From contig CAVTMK010000002.1 in assembly GCA_963735805.1 (NCBI GenBank), forward strand, positions 224,001-288,000: DNA of 64,000 nt. Reading direction: 5' to 3'. Within the stretch, counting starts at the first letter, position 1. Each line of letters begins with the position of its first letter. Positions 10,353-63,958 of the stretch are shown piece after piece. The position numbers were made by a program, and so were the translations under genes. Source of the stretch: an uncultured Verrucomicrobiae bacterium (GTDB taxonomy: Bacteria; Verrucomicrobiota; Verrucomicrobiia; Chthoniobacterales; UBA10450). The notes beneath the pieces are model-generated. The model worked only from the letters and a program-made list of their open reading frames with translations, searched no databases and was not told the origin of the DNA.

Positions 10353-11456
10353 TTACGGCATTGGCGGCTCGTCGGAACCTAGCGAAAGAGGTATTCCCTG
10401 GTTCATTCTGGGCGAAGCGGGAGAAGCAATTAACGGGTTGGCGCGACGACTGTCCGGATGAAGATCCGCGCGAACGTCAAAGCTCAGCTTCTGGTTGCCG
10501 CGTATGACCGTAACCGGGACAACGTCGCCAGCAGTGACGTAAAACGAAGCATCGATTACATCCTCGGCTCTGGCGATTCTTTTCTGCCCAAGCTGCAGGA
10601 GAATGTCGCCCTGTTTTATCCCGGACTTGGCCGCCGGTGTGCCCTCCACGATCTGGGTTATTTCCACTCGCGAGCCTTCCGCCGGTTTGGGTGCTTCCAA
10701 AACCTGACTGACTCCGATCCAGCCGTCCCGCACCTCACCAAAACGGACAAAATCGCTGCGGATTTTCTCCGCTGCTTCAATCGGAACAGCGTAACAAGCT
10801 GAATTGTTTTCGATACCGGCCACCACGATGCCGACAACGTCTCCTTTCATGTTCAATAGCGGCGAACCAGCTTCGCCACGCTGAGTCGGCAAATTGGCGC
10901 GCAGGTGGACCGTAGAAAAATACTGACCGAGATATTTGCGATCTAGTCCCCCGATCAGCCCGAAATTGGGTGTCTCCGGTAAATCCAATGGGTATCCAAT
11001 CGCGATCACCGGCGTCGCCACCTCCATCTCCTCCGATTTACCCGCTGTCAGCGCTGGAGTGACAGCATCGATCTTCAAAATGGCGATTCCGCTGCGGAGG
11101 TCCTTTACCAACTGACGCGCGGGATATTTCCTTCCATTAAATTCGATCGTAAAATCTTCTGCTTCGCCGCCCACTGTATACGCCGTGTAGAGTGTGCCTG
11201 TTGGATCGATAAAAAATCCGGTGCCGCAAATTGGGCTGTGTTCATCGACACCATGAATCTTGACCACTGCTTTGGCGGCGCGATCAAAAATCTCTTTCAC
11301 CTGATGGCTAATCGCTGTAGCCGAGGCGGCCTGTGCCATGGCGCGCTGAAACATATCCTGGGGCCTATTCCCGGTCGTCCCGGCAGATTGCTGCTGTGCA
11401 AAGAGGAACGGAACGCCTGAACAGAAAATCACTGCAAATACAGCTTTACGAAGCAT
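10353..11456 (-). CDS. HtrA-like trypsin-fold/PDZ protein, predicted catalytically inactive
   Basis: Signal peptide; GTGFFID and AIGYPL motifs plus a PDZ. The triad positions read TAYTV, SGIAILK and GEAGSP. Confidence 0.85.
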   Translation of the reverse strand: MLRKAVFAVIFCSGVPFLFAQQQSAGTTGNRPQDMFQRAMAQAASATAISHQVKEIFDRAAKAVVKIHGVDEHSPICGTGFFIDPTGTLYTAYTVGGEAEDFTIEFNGRKYPARQLVKDLRSGIAILKIDAVTPALTAGKSEEMEVATPVIAIGYPLDLPETPNFGLIGGLDRKYLGQYFSTVHLRANLPTQRGEAGSPLLNMKGDVVGIVVAGIENNSACYAVPIEAAEKIRSDFVRFGEVRDGWIGVSQVLEAPKPAEGSRVEITQIVEGTPAAKSGIKQGDILLQLGQKRIARAEDVIDASFYVTAGDVVPVTVIRGNQKLSFDVRADLHPDSRRANPLIASPASPRMNQGIPLSLGSDEPPMP

Positions 11457-11529
11457 ACCAAGGCGCGAACTCTTAGCGTGCGTTACTGGATTGCGCAACC
11501 CGCCTGAGTCGAGTTGTCTTTTCTGCGGC

Positions 11530-12018
11530 CTAAAATCTGAAAGTCGGCTCATAACTCACGGGGACGCTATCGAGTACGTAGCGCGTCGGGGCTGCGACTC
11601 GGTGAGTCTGGGCGCTTTCACTAAAGCTGCGAAGCGGCTGCGTCCTGATCCGGACGATTCCGGGAGACGCAAGCGTCAATTCTTCTTCAGCATTCGCTGG
11701 CGCTGATAAGACCGGCGGACTCTGGAGAGCGACACGAGCTGCGTCCGGTTGCTGATAAATCTTTAATGAAATGACTGCGGCGCAGACCAGCACTGCCGCG
11801 ACGGCAGCCGGATACGAGGCAAGGGAACGAACATCCAGGCGGAGCATGAGACCGTGAGCGCGTTCAAGACAAATGCGCCACAGCGGCTGGCGAAGCATTT
11901 CATCACGCTGCCGGCGATGAAATTCATGAAGGAAATTCTCGAAATAGCCTGGTGGCGGTTGCTCGTAGCGCTTCAATCGAAGCAGCCTCGCAATTTCGTT
12001 ATCGTTAAACTCGTCCAT
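11530..12018 (-). CDS. Putative single-TM anti-sigma factor
   Basis: Immediately downstream of the ECF sigma; cytoplasmic N-terminus (LKRYEQPPPGYFENFL), one TM segment, C-terminal tail. Confidence 0.7.
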   Translation of the reverse strand: MDEFNDNEIARLLRLKRYEQPPPGYFENFLHEFHRRQRDEMLRQPLWRICLERAHGLMLRLDVRSLASYPAAVAAVLVCAAVISLKIYQQPDAARVALQSPPVLSAPANAEEELTLASPGIVRIRTQPLRSFSESAQTHRVAAPTRYVLDSVPVSYEPTFRF

Positions 12019-12031
12019 TTTTCAGCGCGGA

Positions 12032-12718
12032 TTAAGAGACAGGATTTTTCCGAAATTCATCCAGATAATTCTGTAGCTGCCGATTCGCGTAGAAGAGCCT
12101 CGAACGTACCGTTCCTTCCGAAACGCGCAAGATTTTACTGATCTCAGCGTGGGGCATCCCCTGGATATGGAACATGGTAACCACAGCTCTGTGTTCATCA
12201 GACAATTTCATCATGGCCTCGTTCAATCTTCGCTGCAGCTCGGACAGGTCCGCTTCGCGCACCGGACTACTGGTGGCCGTGCTCTCCAGGAATTCCTTGT
12301 CGTTTTGAATACTGGCATCAACGTCATCCAGGCTCAGTTGAAAACGTCGGCCGCGTTTTTTGAGAAAATTGAGCGTCATATTCACGGAAATGGAATGAAT
12401 CCAAGTGTAAAAGGACGATTTGCCACGGAAGCCGCGGATGGCGCGGTAGGCTTTGGCAAAAATGTCCTGCAAAAGATCGTTCGTGTCCTCGTGATTGGAG
12501 GTCATGTTGTAAACCAGACCGTAAAGACGCGGCGTGTATTTGATGACCAGTTCATCGAAAGCACTGGCATCGCCCGATTGCGTTCGCGTTACCAACTCCT
12601 GATCTGGATCGACCCTTGGCTGGTCCATTGTCTCGCGCCTAGACTTAGCACGAGCCTGGAGACCGGACGACAACAAATCAGAGATCCGTCGAGCAGGTAA
12701 CGTGAGAGCTTGGTCCAT
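12032..12718 (-). CDS. ECF sigma-70 factor (RpoE-like); alternative start at 12628
   Basis: Region 2 DLLQDIFAKAY...SSFYTWIHSI; region 4 EISKILRVSEGTVRSRLFYA. Confidence 0.93.
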   Translation of the reverse strand: MDQALTLPARRISDLLSSGLQARAKSRRETMDQPRVDPDQELVTRTQSGDASAFDELVIKYTPRLYGLVYNMTSNHEDTNDLLQDIFAKAYRAIRGFRGKSSFYTWIHSISVNMTLNFLKKRGRRFQLSLDDVDASIQNDKEFLESTATSSPVREADLSELQRRLNEAMMKLSDEHRAVVTMFHIQGMPHAEISKILRVSEGTVRSRLFYANRQLQNYLDEFRKNPVS

Positions 12719-12735
12719 TTAAATAATGCGATCGA

Positions 12736-13428
12736 TCAGCGCCGATCGCGGATCGACAGTAGCCAGAGCAGGTTGCCCAACGCCGCGATGAACGCCGCCA
12801 CATACGTAAGCGCAGCTGCGTTGAGGACCTTGTTCACGCCCACCACTTCCTCTCCTGGCTGGACGATCCCCATTTGTTGCAAAATGATCTTTGCTCGCCG
12901 CGAGGCGTCGAATTCCACGGGTAGCGTGATTACTTGGAAGACCAGTAGAATCGCATAACAATATATGCCGATTGTGATCAAGCCGGTAATGTGAAAGAAC
13001 AATCCACCCAGGATCACGAACGGCAGCATTTGTGACGCGACCATTGTCACCGGCACAATCGCCATTCGTGCCTTCAGGGGCGCGTACGCTTTCGCGTGTT
13101 GAATTGCGTGCCCGGTCTCATGTGCTGCAATGCCCAACGCCGCTACCGACGGCGTGTTGTAAACGCTGGTGGAAAGATGCAGCTTCTTGTCCCTTGGATC
13201 GTAGTGGTCTCCGAGAAAATCGTTCGTTTCCACTACATCGACATCGTGAATTTGCGCTGCTTGCAGAATTTCCCGCGCACATTCGGCACCGGTAATGTTC
13301 GAGCTCGCACGCACCTCACCCCATTTTCGAAATGCGCTGGTAACCCGAATTTGTGCCCAAATCCCAATGATCAACGGGACGCCAATATAGAGCAGCCAAT
13401 GAGATCCAAAACCGAAACCGTAATACAT
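12736..13428 (-). CDS. Membrane zinc metallopeptidase (YugP/Zn_peptidase_2 family)
   Basis: DHYDP, AAHETGHAIQH, TLPVEFDASRRA, AAALTYVA. Confidence 0.92.
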   Translation of the reverse strand: MYYGFGFGSHWLLYIGVPLIIGIWAQIRVTSAFRKWGEVRASSNITGAECAREILQAAQIHDVDVVETNDFLGDHYDPRDKKLHLSTSVYNTPSVAALGIAAHETGHAIQHAKAYAPLKARMAIVPVTMVASQMLPFVILGGLFFHITGLITIGIYCYAILLVFQVITLPVEFDASRRAKIILQQMGIVQPGEEVVGVNKVLNAAALTYVAAFIAALGNLLWLLSIRDRR

Positions 13429-13606
13429 ACCGAGGTTAATTTAACGTATCGAGGTCACTTGTCACACCACTGGCTCGAAACAATTAGACGCGTAATCGCG
13501 GCCTTCGTTCATTCAGAAGTGGGTTGGGCTCAGTCAATCTATACAAGAGGTTGGCGCCGAACGTGCATCTGGCGTCAGCAACGCTCTGAGGACAGTGCCG
13601 TTTCGC

Positions 13607-14740
13607 CTAGATTTCCAACTGCTTTGGAAACCGAGACAGGACATTGCAACCCTTTTTGGTAACCACGACTACGTCTTCCAGTCGGACCCCGCCGAGTCCC
13701 GGGTAATAAAGGCCAGGCTCAACAGTCACCACCTGGCGATCTTTTAGAATAACCTTTTGCAAGCGTGGATGCTCGTGGATTTCCAGTCCAAGACCGTGCC
13801 CGGTGCCGTGAAAGAATCCGACGCGTCGACCCCTGCGCACTTCGGTTGGAAAACCGCGCTGGGCGAATAACTCCTGAATGGCTTTATGAATCGTCATTCC
13901 ATCGACTCCTGCCTTGATTCTCTTTAAAGCCAGCACCTGGCCGGCCTTCACCGCCTCCCAAAGCTTCCGCTGAGCTTCGCTCGCCCGCCCGCGCAAAACG
14001 GTGCGGGTCATGTCGCCAAAATATCCTGTCCTCGCGTCGCGCGGAAAAACATCGAGGATAATCAACGAGTCTGCGTAAAGCGGACCGTAACCGCGCTCAT
14101 GCGGGTCGCACGCCTGGTCGCCACCGGCGACGATGGTACCGGTGGGAATACCGCCGGCATGTAAGATCGTCGAATCAATTTCAGCCCGGAGCATTTCGGA
14201 GGTCAGCGCCTTGCCTCTCCAGCGCAGCCGTTTCCCAGCGCCGGCCTTGGACGCTCTCAAAACTTCGATGCCGCGTTTGAGTCCTCTCTCGGTAATTCGC
14301 AAGGCCTGGCCGATCATTTCCACTTCCTTTTCCGATTTCGCTTCGCGCTCCGGCCAGAAAAATCCGTTTGTTGCGCGAACACGGATTTTGTTTGCGGTAA
14401 GTTCGTCCGCGTAAGCAAGTGAAAAATTTGCGGGCACGGCTACGGATCTTACGCCCCGTTTTTTAAGGAAGTGTGCAAGGACTTTTTCATAAGAGGGCGC
14501 TTTTTTGGATTTCCCCTGCACTTCGCGCTCGAGCTCGCTAAACATGACGAATTCATTCGCATTGGCTTGCTTGCGGCTGCGATCGATTTCCAAATCGCTA
14601 AGGACGAGGGTGCGCTTGCCATTGCGTTCCAGAAAGATGAATGGATCTGGTGCCCAAAATTTCGTTGCGTAAAACATGTCGGCGTCTGTATCGCTGCTTG
14701 CGACAATTAGGCGTGCCGGTTTTGTTTTTCGTTTAGTCAT
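13607..14740 (-). CDS. Xaa-Pro aminopeptidase, M24 family
   Basis: GYFGDMTRT, HGTGHGLGLEIHE, TVEPGLY, GVRLED. Confidence 0.93.
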   Translation of the reverse strand: MTKRKTKPARLIVASSDTDADMFYATKFWAPDPFIFLERNGKRTLVLSDLEIDRSRKQANANEFVMFSELEREVQGKSKKAPSYEKVLAHFLKKRGVRSVAVPANFSLAYADELTANKIRVRATNGFFWPEREAKSEKEVEMIGQALRITERGLKRGIEVLRASKAGAGKRLRWRGKALTSEMLRAEIDSTILHAGGIPTGTIVAGGDQACDPHERGYGPLYADSLIILDVFPRDARTGYFGDMTRTVLRGRASEAQRKLWEAVKAGQVLALKRIKAGVDGMTIHKAIQELFAQRGFPTEVRRGRRVGFFHGTGHGLGLEIHEHPRLQKVILKDRQVVTVEPGLYYPGLGGVRLEDVVVVTKKGCNVLSRFPKQLEI

Positions 14741-14824
14741 TCCCTCTTGTTACGCCGATTGGCGTTGTAGGCAACCCGTCGGCCGCAAACTGTCGGAGCA
14801 GGCCGAGCGCCCGTCATGCGAAGA

Positions 14825-17800
14825 CTAGCTTCGTCTCACTTCGAGTTCTCTTCGTAAGATCCAATGCAACAGCCCAAGCAATCCGAGCGTTGATAAAATC
14901 AAGACAGCCGTGTTGAAGAAAAAGATACCAAAATTGATCCCGAAATATCGTTTCTGCGCGCCGAAAAATACGTTCGGCTTGTTCCCCCGACGGTAATCGC
15001 TTTGATCCATCTCGGCGTTTGAGATCAGGTCTGAGACCTTCTGGTTCACATAGATTTGCTCGGCCGTGATCGGGCCGTTCGCGTCCTTGAAAAGGGCGCG
15101 GTCGAAGGGCCGTTTGCCGCTTAGCACTGGATCGATCAGGTGCAGGTAGTGATCCACGTCGCGCGGGGACTTACCCTCCAATCCCGAGAGCAGCGCCAGT
15201 ACGTCCTTCAGGTCGTCAAGTCGTTGGCGTTTCTCTGGACTGTTGGCCTGAGGGGCGAGGCGTTGAATCTCGTCGTTGGCCCGATCCTGTCTCCGCGTGA
15301 GCGGATTAAGCTTCGCCTGCGCGACAATCATCTCCTCGTACGACCAGCGCATGGCGATGAATTGACAGACGAACGGCACCTGCAATTTGCTCTCCGTCTT
15401 CCTGGTCTTCTCCGTGTTTGGATGTTCCTGGACCCAACGCGAAAGCGTCCACAGAAGCGTGAGGTTCCGGTTCATGTCCTCATATTTGATGAGAGCGCCC
15501 CCCATGATGATCTGCGGAATTAGGACAAGCGGTACGATGTTTGCCGCCGTCTTCGGATCGGCCACCAATGAAGAGATAAGTAGCCCAAGAGCGACACCAC
15601 CCATGGCGGTCATGAACATGATCCCGAGGTCGAGCCAGAACATTCCGCGAATTTGCAGAATGTAATTGCCAATCAGGACAAACAGGACGCATTGAACAAG
15701 GGCGAATACTCCGAGCGTGAGCGTTTTCGAGACGACGTAGTACGACAAACGAACGTTGACGTTTCGCTCGCGTTGCAGCACCGGTCGATCCCGAATGATG
15801 TCGTCGGCGCTGTTGGTTAGGCCGAGAAACATCGCGACAATCAGGCCGAGGAACAGGAACGTCGGAATATGATAGGCGGAAGCAAAATCGTATATCCCGC
15901 TCTCCGAATAGCGCAGGATGGTCGCAATCAGCATCGCCAGTACAGGCGAAACCCCGATGGTGATCACCATATTGGCGCGGTTGCGCATTTTGCTTACAAA
16001 CGCGCGCCGCAGCACGGTGCGAAATTGCGTCCATTCATCGTGCCAACGAAGTGGCAGCCGCTTTTTCTGAACGGGCGCCACTGGCAACGCAGATGGCTCT
16101 TCTTTCCGCAGAGAAACCTGTTTGACGTCCTGAATCAGGCGAAACGCTTCATATTTGTCGCGCCAGAATTCCGGCGAATAACGACGCGCTGCAACAAGCT
16201 GGCCACGGCTGTTTTCTTCGTAAATGATGTCTCCACTCAGGTCGCGCAGCGGCGTCTCCAGCACATCGAAAATAAATTCCGGGCGCGTTGTACCACAGGC
16301 CGGACACGCGCCCAGCTCCGCCCCAAACTGATGTTGGTGTTCCGCTTCAGCGAAATAGCGCAACATGTCGGAAGGCGCTCCGAAAAAGACCAGGCGGCCG
16401 CCTTTGTCGAGCAGGATCGCCTTGTGAAACATCTGGAAAATTTTCGAACTCGGCTGATGAATGGTGACGATAACGATTTTGTTGTGCGCCATGCTCCGAA
16501 TAATTTCCATGACGTGCTCGGAATCCTTTGAGGAAAGGCCGGAGGTCGGTTCATCGAACAGATAAACGTCCGACATCCCGATCATATCGAGCCCGATGTT
16601 AAGACGTTTTCGCTCGCCGCCGCTGAGCGTTTTGCTTTCCGGGCTGCCGACAACTGCATCACGCCGTTCACCGAGCCCGAGCTCGACTAGTTTGGCATCC
16701 AGACGGCGATTGCGATCGCGGCGTGAGAGATGCGGCGCGCGAATTGCCGCCGCAAACAATAGATTTTCGCCGATGGTGAGATGTTCGTCGAAAGCGTCCT
16801 GTTGAGGCATATAACTCAGATAGTGCTTCAGGGCGTCGAGATTTTGATAGAGCGATTGTCCATTGAGGAGGACTTCGCCGCTGCTGGGCTGAAGCTGGCC
16901 AGCCAGCACTCTCATGAGCGTGCTCTTTCCGCAGCCACTGGCGCCCATCACGCACACGAGTTCGCCCCGCGCGATGCTAAAGGAGATTCCCTCGAGACCA
17001 ATCTGGCCCTTGCCAAATCGGTGCGTGATTTCGTTGGCCTCGAGAGTGCGAATGATATTGCGCTCTTCTTCGATGATTCTTTCCGAAAAATTGCATCGTA
17101 GAAATTGGCCGATATCGATTCGAATGGTGTCGCCGTCTTTGAGTGGCGCCGTGGTGCGCACGACAGTGTCACCCACCATGATCGGACGATCCGCTTCGAT
17201 GACCTCCAGCTGACCCACTCGCCGATCGTAATCGCAGAAAATCTTCAACAGCACGTCGCCGCTCGTGCCAGGGGAAAGAAGAATATCGTCAGCCTGCAGC
17301 CGGCTCGGTTCATTCGAAACCAGATACTCCGATTTGGAGGCCTTTAGTTGAAACCGGCCACCCAGGGCGCGCGCCCGTCGGCGCAGGTCATTCAAATCCA
17401 TCTCGCTGTTGTTGCGGAAGACGATCCTGTCTTCTAAAGCCGCATCGACCTGCGTCCCGGCCTTTAACTTCACGCCGTTGAGCTCGGCGTCCACATCACG
17501 CAAAGCCGTCACGCGAACCTTCAATCCGAAAGTGACCCGGAGCGCGCTTTCGCGTGTTCGCGAGCGTTCCAATCCCACCTCATCCGAGTCTCTGTTTACA
17601 CGAATGAAAATCTGCGGAAGCGAAACGTTCTTCTTTGCATTGAAAAATTGCGCCAGCTCCTGATAGCTAAGCACCTGATCGCCCACCAGGATGCGCTGCC
17701 CGGGATAAATTCGGCAAAAACCGCCACGCACCAACGGTCTTCCACGGACCGAGACGGTTTGGTCGCTGTAATTTTTTAGCAAAATCAGTTCGTGATAGCG

Positions 17801-47923: not shown

Positions 47924-48793
47924 TCACGACCGAGGCGCTAGAATGCGAAGCGCTCTCTCTCGAATTCGGAAATCTATCGGGCAATTCCCTGCCAGTTCAC
48001 CATCCAGCTCAAGGGGAACATCCTGCTCGCTCGTGATGCGCAGCTCTCGAGTCTGAAAATATTCGACCTCCGGAACGTTAATGTCGGAGCTGAAAACAAC
48101 GTCCTGGAGATATTTAATGATTTCGAGATAGCCGAGCCGTTTGAAGACGACTACATCAAACAAGCCGTCATCAATGATGGCGTGCTTAAAAAATGGGAAA
48201 GGACCTCCGTAAAGGCGACCGTTTCCAACAAGAACAAACGATCCCTCTTCCAAAGACGTATGGTCCGATTCGATGAGCAGCTTCGGCGGTTGCCGTGCGG
48301 CGATCTGCGCTGCAGAGATGAGATAACTTAGTGGGCCAAAGCTGCGTTTGAAAGCGAGGCTGGTCTCTTTCACCACTTGCGCGTCCAATCCCACCCCGGC
48401 CAGCTGTACAAAGTACTTTGCATTGGCACTCGGCAGATCGACCGTACGGACGTTTGTATCTTCGATGATGTCCCAACAGCGCTGGAGACTGTGCAACGGC
48501 AGGCCAAGCTCCATTGCGAAAACGTTTACGCTGCCCATGGGAAGCACGCCCAATGCGGCATCGCTGTCAGCGATTCCATTTGCAACCTGATTGACTGTTC
48601 CATCACCGCCTGCAGCGACGATTCGCGTAAATCCCTCCTTGACTGCATGCCGGGCTAGCGCCTCAGCTTCACCAGGGTGCGATGTAATCCGGACGGGACA
48701 ATCGTTGGCGAGCGACTCGACACGCTCCTGCCAGCTGTGGACGTGTTCCGGGCTGCCTGCGGTCGGATTAAGGATGACAACCGTCTCAGTCAT
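47924..48793 (-). CDS. YegS/DAGK-family lipid kinase
   Basis: NPTAG, GGDGT, LPMGSVN, ELDGE. Confidence 0.92.
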   Translation of the reverse strand: MTETVVILNPTAGSPEHVHSWQERVESLANDCPVRITSHPGEAEALARHAVKEGFTRIVAAGGDGTVNQVANGIADSDAALGVLPMGSVNVFAMELGLPLHSLQRCWDIIEDTNVRTVDLPSANAKYFVQLAGVGLDAQVVKETSLAFKRSFGPLSYLISAAQIAARQPPKLLIESDHTSLEEGSFVLVGNGRLYGGPFPFFKHAIIDDGLFDVVVFKRLGYLEIIKYLQDVVFSSDINVPEVEYFQTRELRITSEQDVPLELDGELAGNCPIDFRIRERALRILAPRS

Positions 48794-50465: not shown

Positions 50466-51076
50466 GAGTAATCGCCGGCAGCGCCGGCGGAATCCGCCTG
50501 GCAGTTCCGAAACATGGTGTTCGACCAACGATGGATCGCGTCAAAGCTGCCATCTTTTCCAGTTTGGGCGACGCCATCGTGCGTGCGCGCGTCCTCGATC
50601 TTTTCGCGGGAAGCGGTGCACTTGGAATTGAAGCGCTCAGCCGTGGCGCGTCGTCTGTTGTTTTTGTTGAGGGAGAGCGACAATCTGCAGATATCATCAC
50701 AGGAAATCTTGCCAGGACGAAGTTGAAAGGACGAGTTCGACAGCAGGACGTCTTCGATTTCATTCGAAACACCTCCGGCGCAGAACCTTTCGACATCATC
50801 TTCGCCGATCCGCCGTACGAAAAAAACGACGATGGCAAGCGCTTCACCGAAAAACTGGTCACAGACGAAGCAATGCCGCGACTGCTCGAGCCGAGTGGTA
50901 TTTTCGTGTTGGAAAAGCATCCGAACGAAGCTCTTCCCGGAATGCCGCAATGGCGGTTGCTTCGCCAGAAAACCTACGGCGCGACAGAAGTTCTTTTTTT
51001 GGTAGCAATCTGCGGGCAACTCCGGTCCGATTCGGCCAAGTCCGTGATTCCCAAACCGCAATCCGCAATTTCATGA
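50462..51076 (+). CDS. rsmD: 16S rRNA m2G966 methyltransferase
   Basis: MRVIAG, RPT.DRVK, LDLFAGSGALGIEALSRGA, DPPY. Confidence 0.95.
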   Translation: MRVIAGSAGGIRLAVPKHGVRPTMDRVKAAIFSSLGDAIVRARVLDLFAGSGALGIEALSRGASSVVFVEGERQSADIITGNLARTKLKGRVRQQDVFDFIRNTSGAEPFDIIFADPPYEKNDDGKRFTEKLVTDEAMPRLLEPSGIFVLEKHPNEALPGMPQWRLLRQKTYGATEVLFLVAICGQLRSDSAKSVIPKPQSAIS

Positions 51077-52377
51077 TTCGTTTCGTCTACAACCTGCTTT
51101 GGCCAGTCGGGCTGTTTTTCTTTTTGCCGGGCTATTTCGTGAAAATGATTCGGCGCGGCGGCTACCGCGAAAAGTTCGGACAGCGTCTGGGCATTTACGA
51201 TCGCGAACTACGCTCTCGCCTGTTAAAGCGAAAATCGACCTGGCTGCATGCGGTCAGTGTGGGAGAAGTAAACATCGCGTTGAAACTGGCCAACTCGTTA
51301 CGCGCGCTGGAGCCGGATTTGCACTGCGTGTTGACCACGACCACCACAACCGGTTTCGCTCTGGCAAACAAGAACGCTCCGCCATGGATCGAGGTCATGT
51401 ACACCCCTCTCGATTACTGGCCGATCATGCGACGCGCGTTTTCGGTGATCAGGCCGACGAGGATCTCGCTGGTTGAAGCTGAAGTCTGGCCGAATCTGGT
51501 CGCATTCGCTCACGAATGCCAGATTCCCACGATATTGGTAAACGCGCGCTTGTCCCCCAGATCGGAAAGGAGGTTTCGTCGGTTCCGCTTCTTCGTTACG
51601 CCAACATTTCGCCTTTTGGACCTGGTCTGCGCGCAGGAGCCGGATGACATCGATCGCTGGGCTGCGATTGGCGTTAAGCGCGATCGGATCCGTGTGGTCG
51701 GAAGTATCAAATACGATCCCGATGGGCGCGATCACACTTCGGAAGCGCAACTAAGCGGGCCGCACGCGGACTTGAGTAATATGGATCGACGGCGACCAGT
51801 GTTGTTCGGCGGCAGCACGCATCGCGGAGAAGAGGAAATTCTGACGACCATCTTTCTCCGCTTGCGTCGGCAATTTCCCTCATTGCAGTTGTTCATTGCG
51901 CCTCGTCATGTCGAACGTCTCCGCGAAATTCGCTCGCAACTTGCTGCCCTCCCGTTGCGCGTTGCGCCGGCGAGCGAAGTGAAGATTAATCGCGAGTCAG
52001 ATGCAGATTGTGTCCTTCTCGACACGACAGGTGAACTCCAGCGCTGGTACGGCATAGCCACAATCGTATTCATTGGAAAGAGTCTCACTGCGCAGGGCGG
52101 CCAAAATCCCGTGGAGCCAATCATGGCGGGTAAACCAGTCGTGTTTGGTCCGCACATGGAAAATTTCGCGTCACTCGCGGAGAGACTCGTGTCGAAGAAA
52201 GGTGCGATCCAGGTCCGCGATGCCAATTCCCTTGAACTAACGATCGCCGATCTTCTGGGTGATAACGAAGCGTGTCGACGCCTCGTCCGTAGCGCGCGCG
52301 AAGTTTTGAGCGAACATGAGGGTGCAACTGCGCGTGCAGCAGCGTTGATTCATCGACTGGGGTGCGAGAAGGAGTAA
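51073..52377 (+). CDS. waaA: Kdo transferase
   Basis: WLHAVSVGE, EAEVWPN, NARLS, GSTH, APRH.ER, GGQNPVEP. Confidence 0.95.
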   Translation: MIRFVYNLLWPVGLFFFLPGYFVKMIRRGGYREKFGQRLGIYDRELRSRLLKRKSTWLHAVSVGEVNIALKLANSLRALEPDLHCVLTTTTTTGFALANKNAPPWIEVMYTPLDYWPIMRRAFSVIRPTRISLVEAEVWPNLVAFAHECQIPTILVNARLSPRSERRFRRFRFFVTPTFRLLDLVCAQEPDDIDRWAAIGVKRDRIRVVGSIKYDPDGRDHTSEAQLSGPHADLSNMDRRRPVLFGGSTHRGEEEILTTIFLRLRRQFPSLQLFIAPRHVERLREIRSQLAALPLRVAPASEVKINRESDADCVLLDTTGELQRWYGIATIVFIGKSLTAQGGQNPVEPIMAGKPVVFGPHMENFASLAERLVSKKGAIQVRDANSLELTIADLLGDNEACRRLVRSAREVLSEHEGATARAAALIHRLGCEKE

Positions 52378-52692: not shown

Positions 52693-53343
52693 CTATTCCT
52701 TGGGGCGCTCCGAGACGTTAAAGAAATTCCACTCCCACGTCTTGCCGTTATCTGCTGAAAAAGCCTGACCCCAGACAGGACGTTCCTTGTTCCGCGCATC
52801 CCAGCGAAAGACGACGAGGATCGGTTTGCCATTAAGCGTGTCTTTGCCAAAGAAATGACCGACGCCGTTTTGGTCGAACGAACCGACGACGGGAGGCTCG
52901 ATCTTTCCTGTGTTGCTCGCGATCCAGTAGAGACTCCAAAGTCGTGTCTTTGAGTCGAATAATCGCAAAGTGAGACCTTCGAAAAGTTTGCCTCCCATTC
53001 CAGGAAACTGCGTGGTTGAGTACGTATCCATGTCGGCCGCGCCGTTTAGAATCTTGGTATTCACGTCCGAGGAATCGAACTCCGTCCAGTCGCGGCAATT
53101 GGCCAGCCGTTTATCCAGATGCCGGTTGTGCATTTTCCATTTCCCGACTAGAAAATCGAAGTCTTTAGGCGAGGAATTGGGCGAAGCAGTTATCTTGAGC
53201 TCGCCCTGAGCGTCCAATTCCACTTTGGGAATCGAGATACTTTTGTCCGCCGTCAGCTCTTTGTTTTCCGCCGGAGCAAAATGCGAAAGTGCTAAGACCA
53301 AACTGATAATCAGGCAATTTCTAGGAACGAAACTGTGTCCCAT
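52693..53343 (-). CDS. Secreted DUF1579-like protein
   Basis: Signal peptide; DFDFLVGKW, LYW...PPVVGSF and QAFSADNGKTWEWN. Confidence 0.75.
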   Translation of the reverse strand: MGHSFVPRNCLIISLVLALSHFAPAENKELTADKSISIPKVELDAQGELKITASPNSSPKDFDFLVGKWKMHNRHLDKRLANCRDWTEFDSSDVNTKILNGAADMDTYSTTQFPGMGGKLFEGLTLRLFDSKTRLWSLYWIASNTGKIEPPVVGSFDQNGVGHFFGKDTLNGKPILVVFRWDARNKERPVWGQAFSADNGKTWEWNFFNVSERPKE

Positions 53344-53593: not shown

Positions 53594-54622
53594 ATGGAGA
53601 CGGCCTTTTACCAGTCGGAATCTGAGCAGCCGCATCCAGGGCGTGCCCGCGCGATTATTAAAGCGCATCCGGAAGTCCGGCAATTGATGGTGCGCAATCC
53701 ATGGACGGCTGTCATTGCCGTCTCAATCGTGCTCATGCAAACGGGCATCGCTTTCGAAATGGGAAGACTGGGGTTCGGTTACTGGTGGCTCAGTTTGCTC
53801 ATTGCCTATTGCGTAGGTGCGTTCGCGAATCATGCCAATTACGTCATTATTCACGATGCCACTCACAATCTGATTTTCCGGAATAAAAGCTGGAACAAAA
53901 TGGTGGCCGTCGTCGCCGACCTTCCCAATCTCGCGCCCGGTGCTATGGGTTTCCGTGTTTATCATTTGAAGCATCATTCGCATCAGGGGGATTACGAATA
54001 CGACGCGGACCTGGCGAACCATTGGGAGGCACGACTCGTGGGCAACAAATGGCATCGAAAGGCGGTCTGGCTAATGCTCTTTCCATTTTTTCAGCTGACT
54101 CGGCCGCCACGACTGAAAGCGATTAAGATGTGGGACCGGTGGTTCTTCGTTAATTTTGCATGCGCTGTGGTTTACGATCTGGGGGTCGTTTATTTTTGCG
54201 GTTGGCCGGGATTTCTTTATCTCGTATTCGCATTTTTCTTTTCGATCGGGCTGCATCCGGTGGGGGCCCGCTGGATCCAGGAGCACTACACTTACGATTT
54301 CGACCAGGAAACGTTCAGTTACTACGGGCCGATCAATCGCGTTGCGCTAAACATGGGTTATCACAACGAGCACCACGATCTGCCCTCAATTCCGTGGAAT
54401 AATCTGCCGAAACTGCGCGCCATGGCTCCGGAATTTTACAATAACCTGAAATATCATTCGTCGTGGAGCCGATTGCTTTTCCAGTTCGTCTTTGACAAGC
54501 GATACAGCCTTTATTCGCGGGTTGAACGGATGAAAGAGAGGACGGACTTCCAACGAATCCCCAACATGACAGCCAATCAGGTCGGCGGTCTTGATCTGAG
54601 TGCGAGGACCATTAGTTTTTAG
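53594..54622 (+). CDS. Sphingolipid delta-4 desaturase-like (DEGS/Des1) membrane desaturase
   Basis: N-terminal QPHPGRARAIIKAHPEVRQL resembles the Lipid_DES motif; His boxes HDATH, HLKHH, HNEHH; GLHPVGARWIQEH and TFSYYGP. Confidence 0.85.
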   Translation: METAFYQSESEQPHPGRARAIIKAHPEVRQLMVRNPWTAVIAVSIVLMQTGIAFEMGRLGFGYWWLSLLIAYCVGAFANHANYVIIHDATHNLIFRNKSWNKMVAVVADLPNLAPGAMGFRVYHLKHHSHQGDYEYDADLANHWEARLVGNKWHRKAVWLMLFPFFQLTRPPRLKAIKMWDRWFFVNFACAVVYDLGVVYFCGWPGFLYLVFAFFFSIGLHPVGARWIQEHYTYDFDQETFSYYGPINRVALNMGYHNEHHDLPSIPWNNLPKLRAMAPEFYNNLKYHSSWSRLLFQFVFDKRYSLYSRVERMKERTDFQRIPNMTANQVGGLDLSARTISF

Positions 54623-54624
54623 TA

Positions 54625-55239
54625 ATGGCAGAGCGATTGTACGTCTCGAACAAAAACGAGACAGTCCGGATGTTCGATAGCGATTTCATAGAGTTTTTTT
54701 CGCGGGTGCATCCGGTGACTCCATTGGTGTTGTATGTACCGGTGATTGGCTACATGCTTTATGTGTCTCTCTGGCAACACCAGTTGTCAGTCGTGCCGGT
54801 CACGGCGCTGTTTTTGTTCGGCGTTTTGCTGTGGACACTGACTGAGTACCTCATCCACCGGTACATATTCCATTACCAACCCAGGACTCGTTGGGGAAAA
54901 CGGTTGCACTATGTGATTCACGGCGTGCATCATGACTATCCCAACGACGCGCGACGGCTCGTTATGCCGCCAGTCATCAGCATCCCCCTTGCGTTTCTTT
55001 TCTATGGTCTGTTCCTTCTAATTTTTGGGAGCCTGGCGCCGCCGGTGTTTGCCGGACTGGTCTTCGGTTACGTTTGTTACGACATGCTTCATTACGCAAC
55101 GCACCATCTGATAATGAAGCGCGGCGCGTGGCTTTGGCTGAAGCAATATCACCTCCGCCATCATTTTAAGGACGATCACGTTGGATACGGCATCAGCTCG
55201 CCGCTTTGGGACTATGTTTTTCGGACCACGCGAAAATGA
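54625..55239 (+). CDS. Fatty acid 2-hydroxylase-like (FA2H/Scs7) protein
   Basis: EYLIHRYIFH, HGVHHDYPND.RRLVMPP, YDMLHYATHH, HLRHH, GYGISSPLWD.VF. Confidence 0.88.
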   Translation: MAERLYVSNKNETVRMFDSDFIEFFSRVHPVTPLVLYVPVIGYMLYVSLWQHQLSVVPVTALFLFGVLLWTLTEYLIHRYIFHYQPRTRWGKRLHYVIHGVHHDYPNDARRLVMPPVISIPLAFLFYGLFLLIFGSLAPPVFAGLVFGYVCYDMLHYATHHLIMKRGAWLWLKQYHLRHHFKDDHVGYGISSPLWDYVFRTTRK

Positions 55240-55486
55240 CGCGCTGGGAATATTCCACGGCCAGATAATCAGTTGACGCCGCAAAGGGTGGGGGTTCCGC
55301 CATCTCACCAAAAATCTTGTCCTGAAATCCGAAACCCGCTAGATTGGCTGCCCCGAGACGGAACTCGGCTGCATACGGATGCAGCGGACAACTTCGTAAG
55401 GAATCTGTGAAACACGAAAGCTTTCAACTTTGCCGGGACGCGCCGTCCGTTCGGACGGGAGCGAGCGAAAGGCAGTGTACCATTTG

Positions 55487-56791
55487 ATGAATCACGACCC
55501 GGCAAAACTCAGTCTGAGTAATTTTCTGGCACATGAAACGAGTGATCCGCTGGAGCCGCCGCCCGGATTCACGCATTGGATGCGACAGGCCACGTTCGCA
55601 GTGGAACTTTACGAACCGGAGCTGCTCGCCAGTGCGGACGCGCGCACGACTATCGATTACAACGGCCGGCCGCGCTCGGTAATCAACCTTTGTTCCTACA
55701 ATTATCTCGGGCTGGCAAATCACCCCGAAGTCATCGCCGCAGCGCAGGAAGCATTAAAGACGCACGGTCTCGGCGCATGCGGTTCGCCGATGCTGTCCGG
55801 CATGACGGACCTTCACCGCGAGCTTGAGCGGCAGGTGGCAAAATTCCTCGGACGCGAAGACGCCATGCTTTTTAACAGCGGATTTGGCGGCGCGCTTGGA
55901 ACTATCTCCGGTTTGCTGCGCAAAAACGACGTAGCGATCCTGGATAATCGCTCGCATTTGAGTTTGCGCGACGGTGCGGCGCTTTCGCGATGTCGGGCGG
56001 ACAAATTCGAGCACAACGACCCAGCATCGCTCGATAAGGCGCTGGCGCGTAAACAGGCTCGGCGTCAACTCGTGGTGATGGAAGGAATTTATTCCATGGA
56101 TGGCGATTTCGGGAACCTGCCGGCGCTGCTCGATATCGCGGAGTCGCACGGGGCGAGTGTTTTTGTCGATGAAGCGCACTCGATGCTCGCCTGCGGCGAA
56201 AACGGTCGCGGGGCCGCGGAAAAATTCGGTGTGGAAGGTCGCATACCGCTTGTTTACGGCACATTTTCAAAAGCTTTTGGCGCGCTGGGCGGGTTTGTGG
56301 CCGGCCCGAAGGACACCCTTCGCTACCTGCGTTTTTACGCGCACCCGTATGTTTATTCGTGCGCTTTGCCGCCCGTCGTGGTCGCGGCGATTCTAAAAGC
56401 GCTCGAAATCGGAATGCGCGAGCCGGAGTTACGGAAAAAACTTTGGGAGAACGCCGATTACTTTCACGCGCAACTGCGCAACCTTGGCATCGATACCGGA
56501 ATGTCGACAACCTACATAATGCCGCTCGTAATCGGCGACCGGGAACGCATGTACCGGTTAGGCCACGAGTTGAGACGGCGCGGTTTGTGGGTGGCGCCGG
56601 TGGATTACCCGGCGGTGCCGCAAAACAAGATTTGTTTCCGCGCGTGCGTGACGGCCAAACATACCCGCGCCGATCTCGATGAAGCGCTCAACATTCTCGA
56701 TGACACGCTCAAAGCGGATTCGAAAATTAAGGCGACCACGTTCCGGTTGCGCCTCAAAATGTCTGAGCTGGCGGTGAGGATGAGTTCTTAA
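55487..56791 (+). CDS. spt: Alpha-oxoamine synthase, probable serine palmitoyltransferase
   Basis: SYNYLGL, EGIYSMDGD, DEAHS, GTFSKAFG (PLP lysine). The Spt assignment rests on gene context. Confidence 0.8.
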   Translation: MNHDPAKLSLSNFLAHETSDPLEPPPGFTHWMRQATFAVELYEPELLASADARTTIDYNGRPRSVINLCSYNYLGLANHPEVIAAAQEALKTHGLGACGSPMLSGMTDLHRELERQVAKFLGREDAMLFNSGFGGALGTISGLLRKNDVAILDNRSHLSLRDGAALSRCRADKFEHNDPASLDKALARKQARRQLVVMEGIYSMDGDFGNLPALLDIAESHGASVFVDEAHSMLACGENGRGAAEKFGVEGRIPLVYGTFSKAFGALGGFVAGPKDTLRYLRFYAHPYVYSCALPPVVVAAILKALEIGMREPELRKKLWENADYFHAQLRNLGIDTGMSTTYIMPLVIGDRERMYRLGHELRRRGLWVAPVDYPAVPQNKICFRACVTAKHTRADLDEALNILDDTLKADSKIKATTFRLRLKMSELAVRMSS

Positions 56792-57729
56792 TGCCGGCCC
56801 AGGTTGTTCACACGTCAGCCCCCAAGATCGAATCGACTTTCAAAGCGCGCGACGTCGAGGGAGCTTTCGATCTCTATTTCTACAGGCCAATAGGGTTTTG
56901 GTTGGCCCAGTTTTTTGCGCGCCTCAAGATGACGCCGGCGGGCGTAAGCTTGCTGGCCGGCATCTTTGGCATCGTCGCGGGACATCTTTATTTCTATCGC
57001 GATCTGAGCATCAACGTTGCCGGGATGGTGCTCCATGTTTGCGCGAATACTCTCGATAACGCGGACGGACAGCTCGCGCGTTTGACGCATCGGGAAAGCC
57101 GCGAGGGCCGTATCATTGATAGCATTGCTGACCACCTGGTCTTTGTCAGTGTTTACGTTCATTTGACCCTCCGTTATCTGTTCGAAGGCTCATCGCCAGC
57201 GATCTGTCTTCTCGCACTTGCAGCGGGGGTCAGTCATGCATTGCAAGGAGCAGCCGCGGATTATTATCGCAACACCTATCTTTACTTCGTAACAGCGACC
57301 GTCCGAAAGGGCGTAGATTCCTCATCTGAACTGCGATCGGATTATCGGAAATTGACCTGGCGTCATACACCGTGGCAGAAGCTTCTACTTGCTTTGTATC
57401 TGAATTTCACTCGCCAACAGGAAATGCTGGCGCCACGGCTGAAGACGTTTCGTGATGTCACCGGGCAATTATTTCATGGCAAAATCCCCGACTGGCTAAG
57501 AACGCGCTATCGAAACGTGGCCCGTCCAATGCTCAAGTGGTGGGGACTGTTAATGACGAATATCCGGATGCTGGTCTTGTTTGCCCTTCTGTTCATCAGC
57601 CAACCAGTTTATTACTTCTGGTTCGAGCTGATCCCGCTCAATTTGCTCTTTGTTTATCTTCTGTTTCGCCAGGACAACATGGCCGAGTCGCTCCTGAACG
57701 TCGTTGAGAGCGCAGAAAATTCGGCGTAG
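56791..57729 (+). CDS. CDP-alcohol phosphotransferase
   Basis: DNADGQLAR...GRIIDSIAD signature; its ATG overlaps the spt stop codon. Confidence 0.9.
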   Translation: MPAQVVHTSAPKIESTFKARDVEGAFDLYFYRPIGFWLAQFFARLKMTPAGVSLLAGIFGIVAGHLYFYRDLSINVAGMVLHVCANTLDNADGQLARLTHRESREGRIIDSIADHLVFVSVYVHLTLRYLFEGSSPAICLLALAAGVSHALQGAAADYYRNTYLYFVTATVRKGVDSSSELRSDYRKLTWRHTPWQKLLLALYLNFTRQQEMLAPRLKTFRDVTGQLFHGKIPDWLRTRYRNVARPMLKWWGLLMTNIRMLVLFALLFISQPVYYFWFELIPLNLLFVYLLFRQDNMAESLLNVVESAENSA

Positions 57730-57740
57730 TCATTCTCTGC

Positions 57741-58874
57741 GTGTCGGACGTCGAAATTTCAGAGGTCAGCTCACGCCGGGAGCGCGATGCGTTCATCAAG
57801 TTTCCCTGGAAAATTTACGCGAATGATCCCGCCTGGGTACCGCCGCTAATAATCGAACGCAAAGAGTTCCTCGATCGCAAGCGGCATCCGTTCTACAGAC
57901 ATGGCGATGCCGCGTTATTTTTGGCTCGGAAAAACGGCGAGATCGTTGGCCGAATCATGGCCAGCGATGACCCGAATTACAATTCGTTGCACCAAACCAA
58001 CGTCGGCTGTTTCGGTCTGTTTGAGTCCATCGATGATCGCGATGTAGCCGCCGCGCTCTTTAACGCTGCGGCGAGTTGGCTTCGCAAGAAAGGCCGTACT
58101 GAGATCATGGGTCCGATCGATTATTCAACCAATTACGTCTGTGCCCTGTTGATCGACGGCTTCGAATTTCCGCCCACAGTATTGACCGCGCACAATCCAC
58201 CGTACTACCGGCAACTGATCGAGGGCTGTGGGTTTACAAAAACGAAGGATTGGTACGCGTGGTGGTTTGCTGATCCGTCAAAAGCCGTGGCGCAGTTGCG
58301 ACGGCTGGGCGCTCGCGTTCACAGGCGGTGCTCTGTCACTTTTCGTCCAGCCAATCTCAAAAATCTTCGGGATGAAAGCAGACGGCTCCGTGAAATTTAC
58401 AACCAGGCATGGGAAAAGAACTGGGGCTTTGTGCCATTCACAGAAGCGGAAATTGAGTTTATGACCAACGAGCTTAAGCCGCTGCTCCTGCCGAAGTTTT
58501 CATGGGTTGCCGAGAGCGGCAATGAGCCGGTCGGATTCGCGCTGGGTTTGCCAGACATCAATGTGGTCCTGCGCGACCTCAACGGCCGGCTGACACGATT
58601 TGGGTTTCCAATCGGTCTGATCAAATTACTGTTTTGCAGGAACCGTATCCAAAAGGGTCGCTTGGTCGCTCTCGGCGTAATTGAAAAATATCGCCGTGCC
58701 GGCATTGCCGAGGTGCTCGTGCTGCGCGTGATAGAAGAAACAATGGTCAAACGCGGGATCACCGGCGAACTAAGCATGACTTTGGAAGACAACTTCATGA
58801 TCAACCGCTTTCTCGAAGCGATTGGTGCGCATCGCTACAAGACATATCGCATCTACAGCAAATCAATTGCCTAA
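57741..58874 (+). CDS. Bacterial ceramide synthase-like GNAT protein (bCerS)
   Basis: FIKFPWKIY.NDPAWVPPL, GEIVGRI, GCFGLFE, GPI, HNPPYY, WEKNWGFVP, YKTYRIY; co-oriented with spt. Confidence 0.82.
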   Translation: MSDVEISEVSSRRERDAFIKFPWKIYANDPAWVPPLIIERKEFLDRKRHPFYRHGDAALFLARKNGEIVGRIMASDDPNYNSLHQTNVGCFGLFESIDDRDVAAALFNAAASWLRKKGRTEIMGPIDYSTNYVCALLIDGFEFPPTVLTAHNPPYYRQLIEGCGFTKTKDWYAWWFADPSKAVAQLRRLGARVHRRCSVTFRPANLKNLRDESRRLREIYNQAWEKNWGFVPFTEAEIEFMTNELKPLLLPKFSWVAESGNEPVGFALGLPDINVVLRDLNGRLTRFGFPIGLIKLLFCRNRIQKGRLVALGVIEKYRRAGIAEVLVLRVIEETMVKRGITGELSMTLEDNFMINRFLEAIGAHRYKTYRIYSKSIA

Positions 58875-59100
58875 AAGAATCGTGGTGTGTCGAGACGGGA
58901 CTACATCCTGAATTTTTTGACTAGAACAGCCGTCAGCAGAGAAACACTCTGGGTCGGGCAGATGATGTTTCATTGGGACGTTTAAGGGCCGACACCGTCG
59001 GGGGGAACGTAACACCAGCGTTACCTTTCCAGTCTAGCGCCGTCGGGCTATCGGCTGGAGTTTCCGACTAAGATAGCAAACGAAAGAAAGGAAAAATTGT

Positions 59101-63073: not shown

Positions 63074-63958
63074 ATGTTGCCGCTGACTTCGGTTGTTCTT
63101 ATCATCGTCTTTGCTGCGTTGGGTCTGATACGTCTGCTTCCTGTCATTAGAAAGCGTCGTCGGCAAGTCCGCTTCATCCGTGAAACTTTGGCAAATGCCG
63201 GCAAATCCAACCAACCGCGTGTTATCGTTTCACTTTCAACCGTACCCGATCGTATCGGCAATCTAGGGCCGACGATTCGCTCCCTTCTAAAACAAACACG
63301 CCCGCCGGATGAGATCGTCCTGGCCGTTCCGGAATTTTCGATTCGGGAACAGCGGCCTTATGTCGTGCCGAAATATATTTCCCGGTTGCCGCGCGTGCGT
63401 GTTTTGCGTTGCCGCGAGGATTGGGGACCGGCAACGAAGTTTATCGGTGCGATTCAGGACGAGCTGGCGGCGGGGCGGGCGAATACGTTGATCATGGTGG
63501 TAGACGACGACCGGCTTTATCCGCGCGATGCGCTGGAAACTTATCTTTTCTACAGCGAACAATTGCCGGAGGCGGCCCTTTGCTTCCGCGGCGCTGCCAT
63601 GCCGTCTACTTTAGATTGGGACGACGCCAAAATGATTTACGGGAAGGATCTTCGCGAGCCGCGCTCCGTGGCCGTGATCACCGGGTGCGGAAGTTACCTT
63701 GTGCGCCCGCGGTTCTTTGACCAATCGCTGTGGGATTATTCAAAAGCTCCGTCTGTGGCGTTTTACATTGATGACATTTGGATCAGCGCCTGCCTCACTC
63801 GCCGCGGCGTAAAAAGATATGTTGTTCCGGCGTCGGCTATGATGCGCAACGTGCGTCGGCAGCGAGAGACGGTATCATTAAACAAGATCCACGGCCGTCA
63901 GAAACTCAACAATGAAACGATCGCGTTTTTTAAAGATACCTGGGACATCTTCGCCTGA
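63074..63958 (+). CDS. Membrane-anchored GT-A fold glycosyltransferase
   Basis: N-terminal TM segment, VSLSTVPDRI, D.GPATK, VDDD, DDIWIS. Confidence 0.82.
   Translation: MLPLTSVVLIIVFAALGLIRLLPVIRKRRRQVRFIRETLANAGKSNQPRVIVSLSTVPDRIGNLGPTIRSLLKQTRPPDEIVLAVPEFSIREQRPYVVPKYISRLPRVRVLRCREDWGPATKFIGAIQDELAAGRANTLIMVVDDDRLYPRDALETYLFYSEQLPEAALCFRGAAMPSTLDWDDAKMIYGKDLREPRSVAVITGCGSYLVRPRFFDQSLWDYSKAPSVAFYIDDIWISACLTRRGVKRYVVPASAMMRNVRRQRETVSLNKIHGRQKLNNETIAFFKDTWDIFA

Follow-up and report, generated by a model that had tools for sequence, protein, structure and literature searches.

The 64,000-nucleotide stretch of DNA analysed here (the window; positions 224001-288000 of contig C2 of genome G000, which has 3.52 Mb and is 94% complete) carries a gene cluster that probably directs the biosynthesis and tailoring of a sphingolipid (ceramide) in a verrucomicrobium of the Udaeobacter family, with phosphoinositol ceramide as the likely product, as judged from homology and gene linkage. 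Its core comprises genes for a DEGS-like desaturase, an Scs7-like hydroxylase (FA2H), an alpha-oxoamine synthase (AOS), a CDP-alcohol phosphotransferase (CDPOH no. 1) and a tandem-GNAT N-acyltransferase (Table 1). We propose a pathway in which AOS would condense serine with an acyl thioester to a 3-keto long-chain base, and a cytoplasmic short-chain dehydrogenase (SDR) encoded downstream would reduce the 3-keto group, before or after N-acylation, as a stand-in for CerR. The GNAT protein, of the YghO/bCerS type, would N-acylate the base to dihydroceramide; the Scs7-like enzyme may 2-hydroxylate the amide-linked acyl chain, and the DEGS-like di-iron enzyme may introduce either a double bond at 4,5 or a hydroxyl at position 4. 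CDPOH no. 1 would transfer the phospho-alcohol from a CDP-alcohol to the 1-hydroxyl of ceramide.

Udaeobacter-type Verrucomicrobia rank with the most abundant bacteria in soil and, to our knowledge, have no cultured representatives. The closest relatives of the GNAT protein carry the names Candidatus Udaeobacter, Verrucomicrobia and Chthoniobacterales, and the stretch is present in soil, rhizosphere and plant metagenome runs, in agreement with the soil verrucomicrobial origin supposed in an initial annotation of this DNA. That annotation had also described five co-oriented, closely spaced genes, and open reading frames and Pfam matches on the forward strand confirmed their content and places, all five Pfam calls exceeding the gathering score. 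The desaturase and FA2H genes are 2 bp apart, the AOS stop and the CDPOH no. 1 start have one base in common (TAATG), and 11 bp separate CDPOH no. 1 from GNAT, as is consistent with the tight spacing described. The gap between FA2H and AOS is 190 bp, or 247 bp with ATG 55487 instead of TTG 55430 as the ambiguous start of AOS. The desaturase reading frame is in frame with a longer one that opens at a TTG at 53558, and an AAGGAG-like site lies directly 5' of its ATG. A single weak terminator-like site (58896-58910) was found 3' of the GNAT gene, and a promoter scan gave promoter-like sites that were as frequent in shuffled sequences.

The order desaturase-FA2H-AOS-CDPOH-GNAT is kept in loci L005, L006 and L007 and in G300, a genome of the same family, at protein identities of 49-85%; L006 and G048:C13, from the sister genus G048, are one contig and were counted once. 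In G048 and G300 the NTP transferase and SDR genes adjoin the ordered block. The five-gene block is thus conserved within the Udaeobacter family. Desaturase copies that are 75-85% identical occupy the same position in relatives, SDR copies (61-74% identical) adjoin the cluster, and GT2 glycosyltransferase copies (62-71% identical) flank it in L005, L006, L008 and G300, whereas the cluster order is rearranged in L009, another Chthoniobacterales relative. In the initial annotation, the candidate reductase SDR and the downstream CDP-inositol-type genes had been overlooked.

The GNAT protein is a member of the bCerS/YghO family and is predicted to N-acylate a long-chain base. Over 373 residues, its full length, it shares 39% identity with E. 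coli K-12 YghO (BLASTP, E 2e-83), and a query with YghO of E. coli BL21(DE3) gave a single match in G000, the GNAT of the cluster. An excerpt of PMC9386255 (papers given here by PMC number are cited from parts of their text) has the entry 'aca: CC_1154, yghO ECD_02850' in its list of genes that dihydroceramide synthesis requires, so that the link of GNAT to Caulobacter runs through E. coli YghO, the counterpart of CC_1154 according to that excerpt. In BL21(DE3), the neighbours of yghO carry the annotations fatty acyl-AMP ligase, epimerase, acyl carrier protein (ACP) and serine palmitoyltransferase. The GNAT family comprises 1495 representative clusters at E <= 1e-30. The AlphaFold model of the GNAT protein (pLDDT 94) has a tandem-GNAT fold, and the solved structures nearest to it, 2wpw, 7q3a, 5kf1 and MshD, are tandem GNAT N-acyltransferases of amines; a PDB sequence search with GNAT gave nothing useful, and the ESM Atlas returned generic names only.

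The genomic context of the family points in the same direction. Eighty GNAT-bearing loci from many phyla, seven from Chthoniobacterales and 73 others, were gathered with a 12-row GNAT alignment. An AOS homologue is present in 57 of them, including the seven from Chthoniobacterales, and lies within ~3.4 kb of GNAT in 49 of the 73 others; several loci with no AOS match end close to the GNAT gene. A further locus, L013, has a distant AOS match inside a giant open reading frame. Of 47 non-Chthoniobacterales AOS, 44 have their highest score with the Spt model NF047600 (395-683 bits), with two of them (L055 and L071) passing its cutoff, one (L018) has bioF as its best NCBIfam model, and two (L015 and L032) gave no NCBIfam match, the wrong frame having been translated. 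An NAD-epimerase-family (CerR-like) gene occurs together with AOS and GNAT in L017, L018, L019 and L051. In L018 (positions 11146-15775, minus strand; Acidobacteriota), an ACP-fused AOS, an AMP-binding gene and an epimerase adjoin GNAT, and the Caulobacter five-gene set, as given in an excerpt of PMC11324152, has the same parts as were found around GNAT in loci of this type. The naming of the GNAT protein as bCerS-like was thus supported by full-length homology to YghO and by linkage to Spt-type AOS. Fusions of a Spt-type AOS and GNAT in a single open reading frame were also seen, in P0142 (780 aa) and at L075:7937-10138 (797 aa, from an Ignavibacteriales metagenome-assembled genome).

FA2H is a predicted fatty-acyl 2-hydroxylase, and the second tailoring enzyme is a predicted DEGS-like desaturase or hydroxylase. 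FA2H matches yeast Scs7 (PDB 4zr1) over residues 21-201 with E 2e-29; the two have the FA_hydroxylase domain and four aligned His motifs in common, which lie at 78, 95, 156 and 176 in the 204-residue protein of the cluster. It consists of the hydroxylase domain only and lacks a cytochrome b5 domain, as do the plant enzymes according to an excerpt of PMC10002949, whereas animal and fungal FA2H have an N-terminal one. The desaturase has the His boxes HDATH at 87, HLKHH at 124 and HNEHH at 257 as well as hydrophobic segments, and its Lipid_DES match (36.5 bits) lies above the Pfam cutoff of 23. It shares with eukaryotic DEGS1/DES2 the N-terminal Lipid_DES domain, FA_desaturase and the three His boxes, a likeness that is drawn from domains and motifs alone; a PDB sequence search with the desaturase gave nothing useful, and the ESM Atlas again gave generic names only. 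Pfam, the His motifs and the Scs7 match thus bore out the initial FA2H-like and DEGS-like assignments. The accompanying description of both as typical eukaryotic tailoring enzymes was overstated, since functional FA2H homologues are reported from myxobacteria (Ring et al. 2009, cited in an excerpt of PMC10002949) and desaturase homologues occur in Gemmatimonadota. FA2H homologues of 42-54% identity also lie 2-5 kb from GNAT in L015, L028 and L063 (two of Myxococcota type and one from Eisenbacteria), a linkage that fits the myxobacterial FA2H of the same excerpt.

Among 301 Verrucomicrobiota genomes, G000 included, the desaturase was found in 4, FA2H in 5 and GNAT in 26. Desaturase and FA2H are both present in all three genomes of the family itself and in G290, which belongs to a different verrucomicrobial family and in which the desaturase, a CerR-like gene, GNAT and FA2H stand in a row (L143; G290:C1:2077000-2096900). 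The G290 GNAT contains an in-frame TAG and a TGA splits its FA2H, for which decay, sequencing error or recoding are possible. Of 201 Gemmatimonadota genomes, 13 contain a desaturase homologue of ~50% identity, and 129 contain GNAT (a tally that takes in three unpublished genomes, related genomes not being independent), among them all 13 with the desaturase. A search for the desaturase in five other GNAT-bearing genomes gave one weak match, of 29% identity.

The presence of a phospho-head-group enzyme in the operon, as annotated initially, was corroborated by the CDP-OH_P_transf domain of CDPOH no. 1 and by its complete motif D-x2-DG-x2-AR-x8-G-x3-D-x3-D at residue 89, the family motif being defined as D-x2-DG-x2-(A/Y)R-x8-16-G-x3-D-x3-D in an excerpt of PMC9550178. 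Its PDB matches, to AF2299/PI-phosphate synthase chimeras, are weak. In L004-L010 the gene stands between AOS and GNAT, and all 73 other loci lack it; we propose that this position suggests direct transfer of the head group to ceramide. Drosophila ceramide phosphoethanolamine synthase (CPES), a CDP-alcohol phosphotransferase-family enzyme, is a precedent for action of the family on ceramide (excerpt of PMC9550178), the likeness to CDPOH no. 1 being in the motif only. Whereas CPES transfers phosphoethanolamine, the gene context here favours inositol as the donor alcohol. The catalytic motif of a second CDP-alcohol phosphotransferase (CDPOH no. 2) is likewise complete, its PDB matches are to Archaeoglobus AF2299 and IPCT/DIPPS (4o6m, E 8e-18; 4mnd, E 3e-14), and the transferase half of the IPCT/DIPPS model NF041135 matches it with 80 bits. 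The NTP transferase matches the cytidylyltransferase half of the same model (123 bits, model positions 2-220) and is kept near the cluster in L005, L006, L008, L009, L023, G048 and G300. A gene for inositol-1-phosphate synthase (MIPS) lies on the same contig (C2:305857-306960), where it was detected with PF01658 (126 bits) and missed by PF07994. Given these IPCT-like and DIPPS-like neighbours and the MIPS gene, CDP-inositol is the most likely donor and phosphoinositol ceramide consequently the most likely product; the head-group gene set thus suggests a phosphoinositol ceramide made via CDP-inositol. The MIPS gene itself stands alone, with an efflux operon on one side and AddAB-like helicase/nuclease genes on the other.

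For Prevotella and Bacteroides vulgatus, Heaver et al. 2022 put forward a still unconfirmed route via CDP-inositol (excerpt of PMC9246714). An NTP transferase, a CDP-alcohol phosphotransferase and MIPS are shared with the cluster described there, for which inositol lipids without a phosphatidylinositol phosphate (PIP) intermediate are proposed, with final transfer to ceramide through phosphatidylinositol-diacylglycerol (PI-DAG) and a HAD hydrolase. In contrast, the present cluster showed neither a HAD nor an AUR1-like gene, and CDPOH no. 1 lies between AOS and GNAT.

The SDR is a candidate 3-keto reductase in place of CerR on the basis of gene linkage. No CerR orthologue was found in G000, as CerR-like queries from four phyla gave at most 96 bits there, compared with 208-272 bits among these CerR-like proteins themselves, and the best match to BL21 epi reached 48 bits. 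The SDR carries the motifs TGxxxGxG and YxxxK, and its N-terminus does not resemble a signal sequence; a periplasmic location is reported for CerR (excerpt of PMC11087976), and BT_0972, of the Bacteroides type, is an SDR with 3-ketodihydrosphingosine reductase activity (excerpt of PMC9278070). The best epimerase match in G000, at C4:71 kb, belongs to an AasR/CerR-like pair at C4:67-72 kb that was considered and rejected, the AMP-ligase/ACP/MBOAT/epimerase set being part of a glycan cluster. At that locus (L150; C4:62001-78000), genes for an AMP-ligase, a small ACP, an MBOAT protein, an epimerase, a GFO/IDH/MocA protein and a GT2 stand in a row near Wzy_C, and the set looks like one for glycan O-acylation, outside the sphingolipid pathway.

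AOS is a divergent, non-canonical candidate long-chain-base synthase that is neither a canonical Spt nor Kbl nor BioF. It shows the features of the pyridoxal phosphate-dependent AOS fold, with a TFSK active-site lysine motif at 278-281, and its best PDB match is Sphingobacterium SPT (3a2b, 270 bits), compared with E. coli KBL at 248 bits. With the tested BL21 Spt as the query, the cluster AOS scored 223 bits in G000 and Kbl 196 bits. No NCBIfam model was passed by the cluster AOS, the scores and cutoffs being 323 and 640 bits for NF047600, 316 and 500 for NF047599, 268 and 670 for NF047603, and 349 and 426 for bioF. The only other close AOS paralogue in G000 is Kbl (660 bits, cutoff 493), beside a zinc alcohol dehydrogenase gene, and G048 has a BioF above cutoff and a further AOS copy in addition to the cluster AOS. 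The cluster AOS thus stands apart from these as a third paralogue. A role as the BioF of the organism was ruled out, as no BioB passed the cutoff in G000 and the sister genus has a BioF of its own.

In a tree of 71 AOS rows, the biochemically tested BL21 Spt sits inside a 49-row clade of GNAT-adjacent synthases, and the BioF (98-99% support) and Kbl (100%) clades both leave out the cluster AOS. A grouping with BioF or Kbl, which had been named beforehand as evidence against a bacterial Spt, was thus not seen in the tree, and the corresponding models stayed below cutoff. Canonical Spt membership, which the initial annotation had implied, was not borne out either, with no Spt model passed and a position outside the clade of BL21 Spt. 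The eight Chthoniobacterales synthases form a clade of their own on a long stem (1.86-1.90 changes per site); its attachment is a place where long branches meet and was accompanied by a warning of the tree tool. A sister position of this clade to the Spt-like clade was not rejected (approximately unbiased (AU) test, p 0.595). The L018 AOS is likewise placed on a long branch outside the canonical Spt clade, despite its AasR-, CerR- and bCerS-like neighbours. Since the L018 AOS is linked to the pathway by context, Spt function cannot be strictly read off from clade membership.

Three groups of results weigh against the proposed ceramide pathway, the first of which concerns the identity of AOS. 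A branch with 97% support in the Shimodaira-Hasegawa-like approximate likelihood ratio test (SH-aLRT) parts the 49-row Spt clade from BioF, Kbl, L018 and the Chthoniobacterales AOS, and the free tree joins the last with Kbl, at a support of 3.7, a join that was not rejected either. AOS has ~35% identity to each of Spt, Kbl and BioF, and its clade matches 2 of 18 Spt signature columns, compared with 8 of 47 for Kbl (defined from two Kbl rows) and 0 of 6 for BioF. These columns, the long-stemmed separate clade and the lack of a passed NCBIfam model, along with a cysteate-C-fatty acyltransferase among the PDB relatives of AOS (199 bits), would fit a sphingolipid-like aminolipid derived from a non-serine substrate (glycine, alanine or a sulfonated amino acid), in which a 1-deoxy-, nor- or capnine-like base is then N-acylated and tailored. 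We consider such a lipid unlikely, because CDPOH no. 1 is translationally coupled to AOS and requires a free hydroxyl, for which the C1-OH derived from serine would serve, and because DEGS- and Scs7-type enzymes are ceramide-directed in known systems. Furthermore, the PDB and BL21 comparisons slightly favour Spt over Kbl, and the L018 AOS combines an AasR/CerR/bCerS-like context with a position outside the canonical clade.

The second group concerns the two tailoring enzymes of the ceramide pathway. Cyt-b5 (PF00173), a potential electron donor for both di-iron enzymes, was not found in the 94%-complete G000. In addition, a DesA-family enzyme of Caulobacter hydroxylates the amide-linked acyl chain of ceramide (excerpt of PMC11324152), and the desaturase of the cluster may likewise hydroxylate instead of desaturate. 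It is therefore possible, though we would not favour it, that a ceramide is made in which the desaturase homologue acts as a C4 or acyl-chain hydroxylase, giving a phytoceramide-type or doubly hydroxylated lipid without the 4,5 double bond, the more so as di-iron enzymes of the desaturase fold switch between desaturation and hydroxylation and their chemistry is not fixed by sequence. The score of Lipid_DES, the Pfam signature of sphingolipid delta-4 desaturases, above its cutoff argues for desaturation instead, as does the dedicated Scs7-like hydroxylase encoded immediately downstream.

The third group concerns linkage, the head group, the reductase and expression. In all 12 Gemmatimonadota loci fetched, the desaturase gene does not adjoin AOS or GNAT, and FA2H lies beside it in one of the 12. 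MIPS is unclustered, ~18 kb past the end of the window. The SDR reaches 162 bits on the 3-ketodihydrosphingosine reductase model NF049977, whose cutoff of 400 it does not pass, and slightly more, 177 bits, on the generic model PRK06179. In one soil metatranscriptome, contigs that are 90-95% alike cover mostly AOS and part of the desaturase gene, and two doubtful 'RNA' runs are likewise 90-95% alike over parts of the stretch, the uncovered parts being uninformative. These contigs give a weak hint that relatives transcribe genes of the cluster, limited by a likeness of only 90-95% and by possible DNA carry-over. The unclustered desaturases of Gemmatimonadota might be taken to mean that the genes are envelope-lipid neighbours without a common product, the desaturase and FA2H acting on glycerolipid or lipid A and the CDP-alcohol phosphotransferases making glycerophospholipids or a soluble inositol phosphate. 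The large envelope region around the cluster, with WaaA, an AsmA-like gene, GT9, PMT_2, a flippase and further CDP-alcohol transferase genes, would suit this explanation, and the product of the IPCT/DIPPS pair in thermophiles is a soluble solute. It is nevertheless highly improbable in view of the overlap and the 2-bp and 11-bp gaps between genes, the five-gene order kept at 49-85% identity in several genomes, the independent linkage of desaturase, FA2H, GNAT and a CerR-like gene in G290, and the occurrence of the desaturase and FA2H (4 and 5 of the 301 genomes) almost only where the cluster is found.

Table 1. Genes of the candidate sphingolipid cluster and adjoining genes (positions within the window)
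Feature	Position	Strand	Domain or model match
DEGS-like desaturase, 342 aa (P0001)	53594-54622	+	FA_desaturase 90.2 bits, Lipid_DES 36.5 bits (Pfam)
FA2H/Scs7-like predicted fatty-acyl 2-hydroxylase, 204 aa (P0002)	54625-55239	+	FA_hydroxylase 69 bits (Pfam)
Divergent AOS, candidate long-chain-base synthase (P0003)	55430-56791	+	Aminotran_1_2 191 bits (Pfam)
CDPOH no. 1, candidate ceramide phospho-head-group transferase, 312 aa (P0004)	56791-57729	+	CDP-OH_P_transf 41 bits
bCerS/YghO-family tandem-GNAT N-acyltransferase, 377 aa (P0005)	57741-58874	+	Acetyltransf_1 47 bits (Pfam)
Peptidase_S74 (endosialidase chaperone) domain protein, 394 aa	59101-60285	+	Pfam
CDPOH no. 2, DIPPS/AF2299-like, 275 aa	60430-61257	+	CDP-OH_P_transf 48 bits (Pfam)
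NTP transferase, inositol-1-phosphate cytidylyltransferase (IPCT)-like, 265 aa	61296-62093	-	NF041135 123 bits
SDR, candidate 3-keto reductase, 267 aa	62106-62909	-	adh_short 141 bits (Pfam)
GT2 glycosyltransferase, conserved neighbour	63074-63958	+	Glycos_transf_2 29 bits (Pfam)

In L005, L008 and L023, CDPOH no. 2 lies directly 3' of GNAT and the Peptidase_S74 gene is absent; this gene thus looks like an insertion in G000. Next to the rearranged cluster of L009 (11150-15252) are a fused NTP-transferase/CDP-alcohol transferase gene (459 aa) and two radical SAM genes. Upstream of the desaturase gene is a reading frame of 216 aa (52693-53343, minus strand) with no Pfam or NCBIfam match, and WaaA, which the initial annotation had mentioned as encoded nearby, was located at 50950-52377 (178 bits, Pfam). 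A YegS/DAGK_cat-family lipid kinase is encoded 5 kb upstream of the cluster (47924-48793, minus strand), and a DAGK_cat gene also adjoins the Spt-CerR-bCerS set in L051; the kinase may be a candidate ceramide kinase. Past the end of the window (L001; C2:286001-302000) lie genes for a flippase, a GT9, two PMT_2 proteins, an epimerase, a GT2 and a YdjC protein, together with a further pair of CDP-alcohol transferase genes, whose products (399 and 442 aa) have long extensions at the N-terminus.

Compared with the dihydroceramide pathway of Caulobacter crescentus and E. coli BL21(DE3), which comprises Spt, AcpR, AasR, CerR/epi and bCerS, the cluster shares a homologue of GNAT with AOS beside it, and the GNAT family occurs in Spt-CerR-bCerS sets across many phyla. 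Unlike in that pathway, AOS lies outside the canonical Spt clade, CerR has no orthologue in the genome, and AcpR and AasR are absent from the cluster, which has desaturase, hydroxylase and CDP-alcohol transferase genes in addition. Relative to the known bacterial pathway, a non-canonical AOS, an SDR for CerR, DEGS- and Scs7-like tailoring and head-group genes of the CDP-alcohol type would thus be novel, and a head-group route of this kind has most likely not yet been shown in bacteria. A literature search on sphingolipids of Verrucomicrobia or Udaeobacter and on bacterial homologues of the dihydroceramide desaturase (DEGS) gave nothing on point; 22 Verrucomicrobiota metagenome-assembled genomes with Spt-like proteins are reported from the Black Sea in an excerpt of PMC11334938.

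A more specific version of the ceramide pathway, in which 4-unsaturated, 2-hydroxyacyl phosphoinositol ceramides are made with a long-chain-base synthase of a lineage distinct from all characterised bacterial Spt and CDPOH no. 1 transfers the head group directly from CDP-inositol to ceramide, is put forward tentatively, as one possible outcome that we hold with considerable doubt. If true, CDPOH no. 1 would correspond in bacteria to insect CPES, and inositol phosphorylceramide would be reached without an AUR1-like enzyme or phosphatidylinositol. The operon provides a candidate, amenable to experiment, for the direct transfer of a head group from a CDP-alcohol to ceramide in bacteria, as well as a candidate source of a bacterial DEGS-type enzyme, and the case of AOS shows that surveys based on Spt models can miss producers. 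If Udaeobacter carries sphingolipids with an unsaturated base, a 2-hydroxy-acyl chain and a phosphoinositol head group, the soil lipid biomarkers now assigned to fungi or plants could stem in part from bacteria.

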